A stretch of 64,000 nt of DNA from Longimicrobiales bacterium (GTDB taxonomy: Bacteria; Gemmatimonadota; Gemmatimonadetes; Longimicrobiales; Gaopeijiaceae), in contig OZ220732.1 of assembly GCA_965116905.1 (NCBI GenBank), positions 2,176,001 through 2,240,000 of the forward strand. Reading direction: 5' to 3'. This document shows positions 28,128-56,362 of this stretch, piece by piece (the first letter of the stretch is position 1; the number at the start of each line of letters is the position of its first letter). A model generated the notes under the pieces. That model was not told where the DNA came from. It saw only the letters and a program-made list of their open reading frames with translations, and ran no database searches. Position numbers and translations under genes: made by a program.

Positions 28128-28153
28128 AATGGTAAACAAGGATGTTTACTATC
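28128..28153. promoter_or_regulatory. AT-rich palindrome, site A (TAAACA-N4-TGTTTA)
   Basis: aatggtaaaca-agga-tgtttactatc, overlapping the yggS start codon. Confidence 0.6.
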
Positions 28154-28839
28154 GCGGCATCCGGGAACGGCTGCCCCGCGTACTCGACCGGATCGCGGCC
28201 GCCGCCCGGCGCGGCGGACGTGATCCTTCCGGGGTGAGGATCGTCGCCGTCACCAAGGGGCACGCGGCCTGTGCGGTCGAAGCCGCCGTCGAGGCCGGAC
28301 TGCGCGACATCGGCGAGAACCGTGTGGACGAGCTCCAGCGCAAGCGCGCCGCACTGGACGACCTCGACGTCAACTGGCACATGATCGGGCACGTGCAGCG
28401 CCGCAAGGCGGGCCCCGCGGCCCGCCTTGCGGGACTCGTTCACAGCGTGGATTCGGTGCGCCTCGCCGAGAAGCTGTCGCGTCTCGGCGAGGCCGACGGA
28501 CGGCGCGTTCCCGTGCTCGTCCAGCTCAACGTCTCCGGCGAAGCCACCAAGGGGGGCTTCCCGGAGGCGGAAGCGCTGGACGGGGTCGGGACGGTGGCCG
28601 CGCTGGGTGGGGTGCGCGTCCTGGGCCTTATGACGATGGCGCCATTCACCGCCGACGAAGCCGTGCTGAGGTCTACGTTCCGAAAGACGCGCGAGGTGAT
28701 GGAAGCCGCCGCCGGCACTCCGGGCGTGGAAGGGCGCGAACTCTCGATGGGCATGTCCAACGACTACGAAATCGCGGTGGAGGAGGGCAGCACCATGGTG
28801 AGGCTGGGCACGACGCTGCTCGGCGCGCGACCGGGCTAG
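28129..28839 (+). CDS. yggS: PLP homeostasis protein (YggS/PLPBP)
   Basis: IVAVTKG (PLP lysine), GENRVDE, WHMIGHVQ, GLMTMAP and LSMGMSNDYEIAVEEGSTMVRLGT; ggagg RBS. Confidence 0.95.
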   Translation: MVNKDVYYRGIRERLPRVLDRIAAAARRGGRDPSGVRIVAVTKGHAACAVEAAVEAGLRDIGENRVDELQRKRAALDDLDVNWHMIGHVQRRKAGPAARLAGLVHSVDSVRLAEKLSRLGEADGRRVPVLVQLNVSGEATKGGFPEAEALDGVGTVAALGGVRVLGLMTMAPFTADEAVLRSTFRKTREVMEAAAGTPGVEGRELSMGMSNDYEIAVEEGSTMVRLGTTLLGARPG

Positions 28840-28977
28840 GGCTGCCGGGCGATCCCCTGGTCCGCGAGCGACCCGGTTGGTGGGAACGTTTCGCTTTCGT
28901 GAGCGGTAGCACTACGCAGGTGTCGGCAACCGCCGCCATCGCGAACCGGCCGGAAGGCGTCCCAGGGAGGAAGAGAC

Positions 28978-29658
28978 ATGAACGAGGAAACCGCCCGACA
29001 GGAGCGTATCGCGATCGAGAGCGCGAACGGCCGCTTCAAGAATTCGTTTTCGTCCTGGTTCTGGAGCTCGATGATCGCCGCCACCATGGTTCACTTCGGG
29101 TTCTTTGCCTCTCTGGAATTCGCGGAACCGCCGGACGTAAGCCTGACCGGCGAGTTCCCCGAGGTGATCAACCTGCCGCCGGAGATCGACGTCCCGCCGC
29201 CGCCCGAGGCGATCGCCAGACCTGCGACCCCGGTGGTCGCCCCCATGGATATCGAGACCGACATCACCATTGCCCCGACCACCTTCGAGTCCCTCTCCGT
29301 CGAGGATCTGCCGGAGCCGCCCGGCGAGGTGGAGCTGGACGTCTCCGCGGCGCCGGTGTTCGTTCCGTACACGGTCGAGCCCGACTACACGAACGCCGCC
29401 GAGGTGATGCGCGCGCTGGAACGCGAATACCCGCCGCTGCTGCGCGACGCCGGAATTGGCGGCACCGTCCAGATGTGGTTTTTCATCGACGAAAACGGTG
29501 TAGTACAGAACCAGGTGGTGCAGGTGAGCTCCGGGCATCAGGCTCTCGACGATGCCGCGTTGCGCGTCGCACCGGTCTTCCGGTTTACGCCGGCGCTCAA
29601 CCGGGACAAGGCGGTTCCCGTCTGGATATCGCTTCCGATTACCTTCAGAACCAACTAG
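28978..29658 (+). CDS. tonB: Energy transducer TonB (copy 2, close paralog)
   Basis: Near-colinear with tonB1; EVMRALEREYPPLLRDAGIGGT is identical. Confidence 0.9.
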   Translation: MNEETARQERIAIESANGRFKNSFSSWFWSSMIAATMVHFGFFASLEFAEPPDVSLTGEFPEVINLPPEIDVPPPPEAIARPATPVVAPMDIETDITIAPTTFESLSVEDLPEPPGEVELDVSAAPVFVPYTVEPDYTNAAEVMRALEREYPPLLRDAGIGGTVQMWFFIDENGVVQNQVVQVSSGHQALDDAALRVAPVFRFTPALNRDKAVPVWISLPITFRTN

Positions 29659-29680
29659 CGCGCTCGGTCGCCCCACGCGC

Positions 29681-29725
29681 GGGAACGCCCCGCCGGCCGA
29701 GTGGCTGGCGGGGCGTTCCCTTGTT
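29681..29725 (+). terminator. Stem-loop after tonB2 (copy of the tonB1 hairpin)
   Basis: gggaacgccccgccggcc-gagt-ggctggcggggcgttccc-ttgtt. Confidence 0.7.
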
Positions 29726-54086: not shown

Positions 54087-54136
54087 CAAAGTTTGCCATC
54101 GTGTAGGCACGTTTGCCGCGATCTTCTGGAGGCACC

Positions 54137-56230
54137 ATGACCGCACGCGCCCTTTTCGTCCCCCTGGTCACCGTTGCCGTCGTGCACCTCGTCATCGCGC
54201 ATGCCGCGTGCACCCCCACCCAGGACACGCAGGTCGTCCGCGTGGAGATCGACGAGCGCGTCCCCTTCGCGGGCGGCCACGCGTTCGGCGACACCGGACC
54301 GTACGAGAAGATCGTCGGGAGACTCCACATCGAGGTCGATCCCGACCACCCCGCCAATGCCCGCGTGAGTGACCTGAGTCTGGCGCCGACCAACGAGCGT
54401 GGACGCGTGGAGGTCTGGACCGACTTCTTCCTGCTCAAGCCCGTCGACGCCGGCCGCGGCAACGGGCGGCTTCTCTACGACGTGGCCAACCGCGGCAACA
54501 AGGTCGCGCTGGGGACCTTCAACGGAGGCGGGGGCAACGATCCGGCCGCGCTGGAGGACGCGGGCGACGGGTTCCTCATGGAGGAGGGGTACTCGATCCT
54601 GTGGAGCGGGTGGAGCGGGGACGTGGCAGCCGGCAACGACCGTGTCCGGATCGGTGTGCCGATCGCGCGCAACGAGGACGGAAGCTCGATCGTCGGGCGC
54701 ATCTACGCCGAGCTGGAGTCGACCGTCTACGGCCTGTACATCGCGAACGTGCTGGAGCCGGGGAGCGACGCCGCGATCCGCAGGTACTACAGCCTGCCCT
54801 TCGATTGGGGGAGTTCGCTGCCCTATCCGTCCGTTGCGGCGGATAACGGCAGAGCGACCCTGGTGAAGCGGCCGGACCGCGACGGGAAGGGGGTCGAGGT
54901 TCCGCGGGACGAGTGGAGCTTCGGGCGTCTGGAGAACGGCGTGGTCGTGCCCGATCCGACCTGGGTTCACGTGGAGGAAGGGTTCGAGCCGGGCTGGCTC
55001 TACGACCTCGTGTACGAGGGGAAGGACCCCAGGGTCACGGGGCTGGGGCTCGCGGCCACGCGCGACGTGATCTCGTTCTTCCGCTATGCGTCGGACGAGG
55101 AGGGGCCGCTCGCCAATCCCCTCGCCGGGTCCGTGGAGTTCGCCTACGGCTACGGCGGATCGCAATCGGGCCGCTTCCTGCACCACTTCGTCTACGAGGG
55201 ATTCAACGCGGATCTGGAGGGGCGGTTCGTCTTCGACGCCATCATGCCTCATGTCGCGGGCGCGGGGAAGGGAATCTTCAACCATCGCTTTGGCCAGACC
55301 ACACGCCACGGGAGCCATCACGAGGAAGGGCTGTATCCGTCGGACTTCTTCCCCTTCAACTCCGTCCAGCAGGTGGATCCGGTGACCGGCGCGAGCGGGT
55401 CCATGTTCGACCGGGCGCGTGCGAGCGGTCATGTGCCACGGGTGTTCTTCACACAGACGTCCACCGAGTACTGGTCGCGGGCGGCTTCGCTGCTGCACAC
55501 CGACGTCGAGGGCACGGTCGATGCCGATGTCGATCCGTCGGTGCGCATCTACATGATTACGGGCACGGCGCACAACTCGATGACCGGCGGCGTCTATCAG
55601 AGTCCGGTGAACCGGGCCACCACGCGGCCCGTGATGAGGGCGCTGCTCGTGGCGCTCGACCGGTGGGCTGCCGAGGGGATCGAACCGCCCGAGAGCCGCT
55701 ATCCGCGGATCGACGACGGCACGCTGGTCGATCTGGCGGCGTTTCGCGCCGGCTGGCCCGGCATTCCCGGAGCATTGGCGCCCGACGACTTCTATCGGCC
55801 GCTCCGCCTGGATCCCGGCCCCCGCTGGTACACCGAGGGCATCGCCGACCACGTGCCGCCGAGAGCCGGCCCGGCATTCCGGACGCTGGTGCCCATGGTC
55901 GACGCGGACGGCAACGAGGTGGGGGGGATCCGGCTGCCGCACGTGGCGGTGCCGCTGGCGACCTGGACCGGCTGGAACCTGCGGGACGCCTCCTGGGGTG
56001 CGGGCGGAATGCTCACCCGGTGGATGGGGTCGTATCTGGCGTTTCCGTGGACCGAGGCGGAGCGGTCGGCCCTGGGAGACCCGCGCAGGTCGGTGCAGGA
56101 CCGCTACGCCACGCACGATGCGTACGTGGCTCAGGTCGAGCGCGTGTGCCGGGAACTGGTGGCCGGCGGCTACCTGCTGGAGCGGGACGCCGCGGCGCTC
56201 GTGCGAGAGGCTGCGGATCGGGAGTGGTGA
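54137..56230 (+). CDS. Exported alpha/beta hydrolase domain protein (Abhydrolase_10-like)
   Basis: GPYEKIVG, LYDVANRG, GLGLAATRD, nucleophile-elbow GGSQSGRFL, STEYW, DADGNEVGGIRLP..VPLAT.TGWN. Confidence 0.85.
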   Translation: MTARALFVPLVTVAVVHLVIAHAACTPTQDTQVVRVEIDERVPFAGGHAFGDTGPYEKIVGRLHIEVDPDHPANARVSDLSLAPTNERGRVEVWTDFFLLKPVDAGRGNGRLLYDVANRGNKVALGTFNGGGGNDPAALEDAGDGFLMEEGYSILWSGWSGDVAAGNDRVRIGVPIARNEDGSSIVGRIYAELESTVYGLYIANVLEPGSDAAIRRYYSLPFDWGSSLPYPSVAADNGRATLVKRPDRDGKGVEVPRDEWSFGRLENGVVVPDPTWVHVEEGFEPGWLYDLVYEGKDPRVTGLGLAATRDVISFFRYASDEEGPLANPLAGSVEFAYGYGGSQSGRFLHHFVYEGFNADLEGRFVFDAIMPHVAGAGKGIFNHRFGQTTRHGSHHEEGLYPSDFFPFNSVQQVDPVTGASGSMFDRARASGHVPRVFFTQTSTEYWSRAASLLHTDVEGTVDADVDPSVRIYMITGTAHNSMTGGVYQSPVNRATTRPVMRALLVALDRWAAEGIEPPESRYPRIDDGTLVDLAAFRAGWPGIPGALAPDDFYRPLRLDPGPRWYTEGIADHVPPRAGPAFRTLVPMVDADGNEVGGIRLPHVAVPLATWTGWNLRDASWGAGGMLTRWMGSYLAFPWTEAERSALGDPRRSVQDRYATHDAYVAQVERVCRELVAGGYLLERDAAALVREAADREW

Positions 56231-56328
56231 CCGTCAAGCCGGGAGTGGTGACCGCCAAGCCGGGAGTGGTGACCGCCAAGCCGGGAGTGGTGATCGCCAA
56301 GCCGGGAGTGGTGATCGCCAAGCCGGGA
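56219..56328 (+). repeat. 21-bp tandem repeat x5 starting over the hydrolase stop codon
   Basis: cgggagtggtga(c/t)cg(c/t)caagc at 56219, 56240, 56261, 56282 and 56303, then partial cggga. Confidence 0.95.
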
Positions 56329-56332
56329 AAGT

Positions 56333-56362
56333 CCAATACTGAACATTATTGTTTAGTATTGG
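56333..56362. promoter_or_regulatory. AT-rich palindrome, site C
   Basis: ccaatactgaaca-ttat-tgtttagtattgg; contains the stop codon of the convergent methyltransferase. Confidence 0.7.

Follow-up and report, generated by a model that had tools for sequence, protein, structure and literature searches.

Relation to described operators

ArsR repressors that are paired with COG3832 proteins (ArsR together with an AHSA1/START/SRPBCC partner) lack the metal-binding motifs of the ArsR family (PMC2701414; this and the other papers cited are represented by excerpts, to which our statements about them are limited). Rv2034, of the Rv2034-Rv2035 pair, is an autorepressing dimer that recognizes a palindrome with a 4-base-pair (bp) spacer, binds half-sites and has 614 chromatin immunoprecipitation sequencing sites (PMC3338718), and SmtB/ArsR proteins bind 26-bp AT-rich imperfect repeats of 12-2-12 layout, a few of which lie within genes (PMC8790569). 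Here, we describe a 26-bp palindrome that occurs three times in a 64,000-nucleotide stretch of a Longimicrobiales chromosome (hereafter the window, G000:C1:2,176,001-2,240,000; G000 is a single-contig genome of 4.21 megabases (Mb) and 67.7% GC) and 24 times in that genome as a whole, and which is very probably bound by a small ArsR/SmtB repressor, P0001. In agreement with the ArsR-COG3832 modules, P0001 is small, is devoid of the metal motifs of its family and is followed by an AHSA1-domain gene. The arm sequence of the Rv2034 palindrome is different, and a motif search found just five other promoters for that protein (PMC3338718), whereas well-assembled genomes carry 20-36 near-consensus sites each of the present motif, conserved in genes and at gene ends. 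Like the operators of SmtB, ZiaR, AztR and AzuR, the palindrome is a 26-bp AT-rich imperfect inverted repeat at the promoter of the likely repressor's own operon, and one listed Anabaena repeat has its outer AATAC and inner AACA/TGTT (PMC8790569). Compared with 12-2-12 operators, its arms are one base shorter and its spacer two bases longer, and the known SmtB-type regulons comprise one to a few metal-resistance promoters, unlike the 24 dispersed sites observed here.

Repressor sites within coding sequence have precedents in PurR at purB and in CodY roadblocks (cited in PMC10294691), although these are widely conserved metabolic regulators and a large share of sites between convergent gene ends is not among the features that the excerpt describes for them. 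The NadR box of enterobacteria has nearly identical half-site letters (PMC2330245), but its arms are in the opposite orientation and it is thus a different site. Neither the motif nor its spread was found in open-access literature searched on ArsR operators linked to SRPBCC or AHSA1 genes, ArsR sites within genes, DUF222-HNH genes, repeats of sponge Gemmatimonadota, the proliferation of sites and the half-site letters; RegPrecise or CollecTF may record the motif. Chromosome-organising sites (matS/MatP, parS/ParB, NBS/Noc, Ter/Tus and XDS/XerD) are present as tens of conserved, promoter-independent copies, some of them in genes, and are regionally clustered. The palindrome resembles these in its tens of conserved copies irrespective of promoters, some in genes, and in forming one cluster; unlike them, it has no tie to origin or terminus, its likely binder has a transcription-factor fold and its occurrence within the genus is patchy. 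We regard it as an ArsR-family operator, and hence of a known kind, that is unusual in its spread across the genome. It likely supplies the DNA motif for part of a widespread, little-studied family of ArsR-AHSA1 modules, and would represent an operator caught in the course of its expansion from a single promoter to tens of places, many of them promoter-free. It also bears on the open question of whether non-promoter transcription-factor sites of bacteria act, as these sites, unlike those of PhoB, are conserved at the cost of amino-acid changes. With one 110-amino-acid (aa) protein and one 26-mer the question is directly testable, and two independent spreads permit comparison.

A 26-bp palindrome dispersed through the genome

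A preliminary description of the window, made from its letters, had reported three palindromes, one over a yggS start, one in a divergent gap and one at a convergent junction where the site supplies a stop codon, and had roughly estimated that the exact core would be expected about 1e-4 times per window. The three sequences are found exactly at the positions listed in Table 1 and all three contexts are borne out; allowing at most one mismatch, TAAACA-N4-TGTTTA has three matches in the window (two exact, the third with one mismatch) as compared with none in 100 shuffles. A whole-genome scan of the kind proposed there, with a scoring matrix derived from the 22 best G000 matches, yields 23 sites at 26-49 bits and one at 20 bits, with the next best match at ≤10.7 bits, giving 24 sites (leave-one-out scores 19-47 bits), whereas three order-3 Markov simulated genomes contain none at ≥18 bits. 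The consensus is RATACTAAAC(A/C)-N4-(T/G)GTTTAGTATY, with an AT-rich, variable spacer. The exact core TAAACA/TGTTTA occurs six times in G000 with a 4-bp spacer and once with all other spacers of 0-10 bp together. The conserved unit of 26 bp is best read as 11-4-11, although it is also readable as 12-2-12; the 11-6-11 layout suggested earlier, by analogy to a recombinase core site, falls away, as the outer positions that it needs carry only ∼0.15 bit. A repetitive extragenic palindrome or miniature inverted-repeat transposable element was rejected, since the flanks are not complementary in G000 and its relatives (0.26, as compared with 0.29 when shuffled).

Among 53 genomes of the genus, a strict-pattern scan finds 5-30 sites in each of 22 and none in the remaining 31, and the reversed motif, used as a control, is absent from all 53. 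These genomes are kin rather than independent samples, and the positive/negative pattern stands for few events. In 24 genomes from two other families of the order, a single match was found in six. Of the 76 loci returned by an exact-match scan of GTDB, 46 are titled Gemmatimonadota or Longimicrobiales. The sequencing runs that contain the window are mostly labelled sponge metagenome, which together with the Gemmatimonadota matches indicates that the organism is likely a sponge-associated member of this phylum.

An ArsR/SmtB repressor as the candidate binder

P0001 heads an operon (arsR, an AHSA1/SRPBCC gene and a phosphodiesterase gene) that is divergent from a TonB-dependent receptor gene. 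The protein matches profile NF033788 at 71.6 bits (cut-off 55), and its predicted structure has the ArsR fold (predicted local distance difference test score 89.5; best Foldseek match 3f6o), with no recognisable alpha3N or alpha5 metal site and one conserved cysteine in the wing. The PF08327 (AHSA1) gene starts 8 bp past arsR, and an AHSA1 match lies beside 14 of 15 orthologues. A site of 37-47 bits is present 54-100 bp before arsR in 14 of the 15 orthologues, including that of G000, and is absent in G029. By eye, TTGAAT-17 bp-TATACT can be read upstream of arsR in G033, G002 and G027, and its TATACT hexamer falls within the site. A P0001 orthologue is found in 21 of the 22 motif-positive genomes of the genus and in none of the 31 motif-negative ones; from G013, the motif-positive genome that has no orthologue, the entire 8-kilobase (kb) locus is missing in a 190-contig draft. 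In G003, whose shared proteins are 83-87% identical to those of positive genomes, the AHSA1 gene and its neighbours are retained but arsR is missing, and no site is found even at ≤3 mismatches. Gene trees disagree on the placing of G003, G021 and G027, and either a loss in G003 or a gain elsewhere by transfer is compatible with them. Other ArsR homologues are associated with related palindromes of the same spacing that score up to 30 bits. In G029, which is among the genomes with fewest sites (5-6), a 423-aa gene lies directly before arsR and the operator is gone (L342:4306-5924).

Outside Gemmatimonadota there are 30 exact matches, six in DNA of ≥50% GC and 24 in AT-richer DNA. Of the six, three lie just before arsR (in Pseudomonadota, Rhodothermales and Bacteroidetes records), one lies before an SRPBCC gene (in an Isosphaeraceae record), one belongs to G065 and one is at a contig edge. 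The ArsR proteins of the Rhodothermales and Bacteroidetes records are close relatives of each other, and the four genomes with an arsR- or SRPBCC-linked match have 1-2 copies each. The presence of the palindrome before arsR and SRPBCC genes in other phyla provides support that is independent of kinship within the genus, and P0001 very probably binds the sites. The genome-wide, dimeric DNA-binding part of the preliminary proposal thus stands, but its ‘unrecognised’ protein is likely a recognisable ArsR/SmtB repressor.

That another clade-specific protein reads the sites, with arsR merely one of its targets, or that the element is an RNA hairpin, is most unlikely. Gene presence was compared with the motif for the arsR orthologue, a DUF222-HNH subfamily and a Cre-like recombinase, which would leave room for another protein of the same distribution; the occurrence of the same sequence before arsR and SRPBCC genes in unrelated phyla speaks against it. 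In 166 distinct sites the arms pair slightly above re-paired halves (1475 versus 1453 ± 10), as a hairpin would have it, but 351 arm mismatches are tolerated, the arms vary almost independently, most copies fold weakly (-0.7 to -11 kcal/mol) and Rfam gives no match in the window, on which grounds a hairpin was rejected. A DUF222-HNH protein was likewise rejected as the binder, since its subfamily is present without sites in motif-negative genomes.

A second spread of the motif is seen in G065, an unrelated actinobacterium (Acidimicrobiaceae). At ≤3 mismatches it has 17 sites, of which 8 are at tandem, 5 at convergent and 2 at divergent junctions and 2 are in-frame; one lies 66 bp before a stand-alone arsR. 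Among 81 genomes of its family, both the motif and the arsR protein are found in G065 only. The two in-frame sites (L272:1500-1525 and L328:1511-1536) fall in the low-complexity, long acidic tails of two ribosomal protein genes, probably L10-like and L22-like as judged from their neighbours. The G065 sites have a loose longer palindrome in common (0.46).

Sites inside genes

Four G000 sites lie in-frame within genes and keep AT-rich wobble bases, across 14 genomes in the case of an aminotransferase gene. Here, KLERDNGLRYP/KLSRDNDLRYS of G029, G030 and G003 is replaced by QLKLNNNVKYS or a near variant in 14 genomes with no insertion or deletion, and the genes of site-free relatives are of equal length with different residues. 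Of the 366 codons of this gene, only 7 end in A or T in every one of the 14 genomes, five within the site and one in an adjoining palindrome, whereas the A/T third-base fraction over the whole gene is 0.11. In-place rewriting is also observed at the yggS start, in thiI (site in G000, G021 and G018, but not in G003, G029 and G030), in a Vps10-like gene (site in G000, G021 and G029, but not in G003 or G030) and at the end of holB, where a site is present in five of six motif-positive and none of five motif-negative genomes. As read from these alignments, the sites inside genes are under selection, because AT-rich wobble bases are kept and residues have changed without insertions or deletions.

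Chromosomal position and gene context

The preliminary description had drawn an analogy to matS, parS or Ter. In G000 the origin is at ∼0.88 Mb (dnaA, parB and skew minimum) and the terminus at ∼2.93 Mb (skew maximum and dif-like site), and the sites show no tie to either, which speaks against the analogy. Half of the sites (12 of 24) lie in 2.204-2.279 Mb, from yggS to purF, in a 75-kb cluster that starts at window site 1; when merged to 18 loci, eight fall within 100 kb (p = 5e-5). Only 1 of the 24 is within 0.5 Mb of the skew maximum, and the sites are symmetric and hence non-polar. yggS lies 1.3-1.7 Mb from dnaA in four relatives and the cluster start lies at the same distance in five genomes, which indicates that the cluster tracks a gene region rather than the origin or terminus. 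It recurs in G001, G014 and G021, whereas G029 and G030 have only 2-3 sites in the region. The statement that the motif is neither dif nor parS holds: next to the skew maximum, at G000 2,929,97x, is a separate dif-like site with arms that differ from the motif, and parB is adjoined by two parS sites (873,974 and 874,018), canonical as judged by the known consensus and distant from the palindromes. Roles like those of parS, dif, matS and Ter are therefore excluded by sequence and by position. XerD side-sites were rejected because the dif arm differs at two consensus positions.

Our own gene calls place 10 of the G000 sites between tandem, 4 between divergent and 6 between convergent genes, and 4 within genes. 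For 67 sites in selected regions of relatives (six genomes; the stretch from yggS to purF, six loci of G014 selected for DUF222-HNH genes and 20 stretches of G027 with 24 of its 36 sites) the corresponding numbers are 27, 10, 22 and 7, the remaining site being at an edge. With 10 of 24 convergent or intragenic, the G000 sites are not confined to the promoters of a small regulon, and with 6 of 24 at convergent ends, the earlier remark that a plain operator does not explain a copy between two 3′ ends carries beyond the window. Two other motif families have 1 of 18 and 1 of 7 copies at convergent junctions. Neighbours of the G000 sites, from annotation of 80 of the 125 genes called in twelve loci, include many peptidases, amidohydrolases and peptide transporters, as well as yggS, thiI, holB/moaC and toxin-antitoxin-type genes. 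The possibility that every site is a promoter was rejected, as -35-like hexamers precede 5 of 46 half-sites against a 7% background, and so was terminator replacement by the sites, since no hairpin deficit remains once lengths are matched.

Proposed mechanism and alternatives

We propose, with a probability of about 0.55, that a clade-specific ArsR operator has multiplied to 24 copies that repress promoters and act as roadblocks in genes and at gene ends. The winged-helix P0001 dimer would read one 11-12-bp arm per subunit and repress its own operon promoter. At window site 2, which covers the predicted -10 hexamer of the sole promoter-like match in 50400-56600, it would act likewise, and this site would likely repress the DUF3500 gene. 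Sites within genes and at 3′ ends would halt elongating RNA polymerase, which is the least sure step, and such roadblocks may reduce read-through where acquired genes are numerous, fencing off hydrolase, peptide-uptake and newly acquired genes, the DUF222-HNH nuclease genes included. A small-molecule signal would release the protein and lift the block. New sites seem to have arisen by stepwise codon change in place from near-matches, by carriage on DUF222-HNH copies and by occasional short copying (one 36-bp event), by which the rise of many AT-rich sites in a GC-rich genome is partly explained. That the extra sites act on transcription at all is slightly favoured.

Several observations weigh against this proposal. 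None of the 24 exact matches in AT-richer DNA lies within 800 bp of an arsR, and the G065 sites flank housekeeping genes of no common function. Pooled intergenic sites are at convergent junctions in 28 of 79 cases versus 16.6% of G000 junctions (p = 4e-5), but this value counts kin and regions of our choosing, and singly the excess is nonsignificant (G000, 6 of 20, p = 0.10; G065, 5 of 15, p = 0.09). GC hairpins are found at 12 of 35 site-bearing convergent junctions versus 15 expected when length-matched (64% unmatched). Intragenic PhoB sites of Escherichia coli are inert and have no roadblock action, although they are also not conserved (PMC10294691). A G000 paralogue of arsR (53% identical) has a related palindrome of 9.5 bits, which makes cross-binding possible, and the co-occurrence of motif and arsR within the genus reflects few events. 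Finally, motif-negative G017, which has no arsR orthologue, has a 29.9-bit site in the Vps10-like gene that is either a relic or a sign that codons can approach the motif by themselves.

The main rival keeps the same ArsR but has it co-opted as a chromosome organiser, whose dimers at paired or clustered sites loop or insulate individual nuclease genes and a variable stretch of 75-110 kb, or stall SMC complexes or replisomes; we consider it rather unlikely. In its favour, position relative to promoters is seemingly irrelevant, the sites are clustered, with a cluster recurring in three relatives, and DUF222-HNH genes are bracketed at both ends (2 of 2 in G000 and, in G014, 6 of the 7 that were examined). 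Typically, matS, parS and NBS also include conserved copies within genes. An archaeal SMC roadblock protein has also been described (PMC11840125). However, the tie to origin or terminus is lacking and the region holds just 2-3 sites in G029 and G030; moreover, 31 of 53 genus genomes manage without the motif and the 110-aa P0001 has no bridging domain. A Hi-C run gave no reads on the stretch, with about 1/100 of its reads sampled. A bolder version, in which one acquired ArsR seeds a chromosome-wide landmark system, with operators that multiply to tens, rewrite proteins, cap convergent ends and bracket HNH nuclease genes, and a repressor that turns insulator or looping factor, having arisen twice independently in sponge-associated Gemmatimonadota and one Acidimicrobiaceae lineage, is conceivable but doubtful.

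It is distinctly unlikely that the extra sites are passengers, carried on DUF222-HNH elements or copied by repair, with little effect where they landed. The two G000 DUF222-HNH copies are 94% identical, each with a site at both ends, and their shared sequence ends at the outer edge of the 3′ site; the seven G014 copies, each at a locus of its own, belong to a single recent clade, with a 5′ site in 7/7 and a 3′ site in 6/7. A 36-bp stretch containing a site and a second palindrome is present both in-frame in the aminotransferase gene and in an unrelated junction, and 3 of 21 copies of this second palindrome are ≤100 bp from a site (0 of 10,000 random draws). Apart from these two pairs, however, G000 sites share no flanks, and the reading is already weakened by in-gene sites that changed residues without insertions or deletions while AT-rich wobble bases were kept. 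The subfamily also multiplies site-free in motif-negative genomes (29 of 36 with a match at 1e-40), and at one locus the G003 gene is site-free whereas those of G000, G001 and G014 have both sites, which indicates that the element carries sites but is not dependent on them. No G065 site lies beside a gene matching the G000 DUF222-HNH proteins.

It is very unlikely that the palindrome is the core site of a site-specific recombinase shuffling gene cassettes, for which most tests were negative. Different genes adjoin the same site in different genomes, stop codons are frequently within an arm, and a contig of run X2 breaks off at the last base of site 2,263,555 and resumes at the end of an S9 peptidase gene, 4.4 kb being absent; this joint is weak, with 17 other letters between and 25 letters only on the short side, and 26-bp repeats alone could yield it without a dedicated enzyme. 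On the other hand, spacers are highly varied and differ between the left and right sites of one element, the dif arms are unlike the motif and sites within conserved genes would be destructive. Site-bearing junctions show no excess of the suggested synteny breakpoints, genome-unique junctions being 15 of 32 site-bearing versus 124 of 257 others (p = 1.0) in a very variable region. The Cre-like recombinase tested as cognate enzyme was rejected, as it is present in 18 of 31 motif-negative genomes and so does not follow the motif.

Features of the window and further observations

The gene that begins within site 1 is presumably yggS, as it was named in the preliminary description (Table 1). A counterpart of site 1 at the yggS start is found in G000 and five of seven motif-positive relatives checked, and in none of 11 motif-negative genomes. 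The DUF3500/DMFA2 gap also has a site in G021, G030, G014 and G027. Site 3 has a counterpart at the same place in G021, and no site was found at the end of the methyltransferase gene in G001, G014, G029 and G003. Between the hydrolase stop and site 3, ∼5 head-to-tail copies of a 21-bp unit occupy window 56215-56330.

Table 1. Palindromes and adjoining genes of the window, with the P0001 gene
Feature	Position	Strand	Score or basis
Site 1, 26-bp palindrome over the yggS start codon (codons MVNKDVYY)	28128..28153		matrix score 36.8 bits
yggS-type pyridoxal phosphate-binding protein gene, site 1 encoded by its first codons	28129..28839	+	Pfam Ala_racemase_N and gene call
DUF3500 gene, start codon uncertain	49421..50581	-	family match and gene call
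Site 2, palindrome within the DUF3500/DMFA2 divergent gap	50659..50684		44.3 bits
Dimethylformamidase beta-like (DMFA2_C) gene, divergent from DUF3500, start codon uncertain	50897..52900	+	family match and gene call
Alpha/beta hydrolase gene, ending 105 bp before site 3	54137..56230	+	family match and gene call
Site 3, palindrome at the convergent junction; spacer supplies the TAA stop of the methyltransferase gene	56335..56360		48.7 bits
Methyltransferase gene, last codons NTKQ* formed by site 3, start codon uncertain	56346..57530	-	family match
P0001, 110-aa ArsR/SmtB repressor gene, 0.73 Mb from the window sites	G000:C1:1476399-1476731		operon head

The second palindrome, GTTTCAGCTGAAAC, has 19 exact copies in G000 (e.g. 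L009:13566-13579 and L002:5563-5576), resembles parS with the central pair swapped and encodes a VSAET motif within DUF222-HNH genes. It is also present in motif-negative genomes, and of its 10 intergenic copies 6 fall between convergent genes. Upstream of the DUF222-HNH subfamily, a GAAC-N7-GAAC direct repeat is conserved genus-wide (L002, L011); it resembles the alphaproteobacterial LexA box, so that damage may induce the nuclease. G000 also contains at least three other families of dispersed AT-rich motifs. One consists of GTAAAGT/ATGACA-type sites (∼28 bp, ∼20 copies), some of which look like a XerD arm, and two others are AAAATACGT-type repeats of 9 bp and GAGTATAT-type repeats of 8 bp. 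Copies of these families lie inside genes in some cases, and one family flanks DUF222-HNH copies that have no ArsR site; the genus as a whole may be prone to operator spread. In several gut Clostridia records (L121, L129, L131, L133, L134, L135, L138, L156, L166, L175 and L189) additional pairing bases lengthen the exact palindrome and arsR is not found close by; here it is probably another element or the site of another regulator.

Elsewhere in the window, a tyrosine integrase gene at 16657-17823 (-) and five other G000 loci encode six integrases of one family (67-75% mutually identical), plus a fragment. Three DUF1592/DUF1588 + DUF1552 gene pairs, two of them followed by ankyrin-repeat genes, are found at 37901-63245, and a sterol methyltransferase-like gene at 57809-58912. 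At G000:C1:1296478-1298432, 17 tRNA genes are arrayed in 2 kb.

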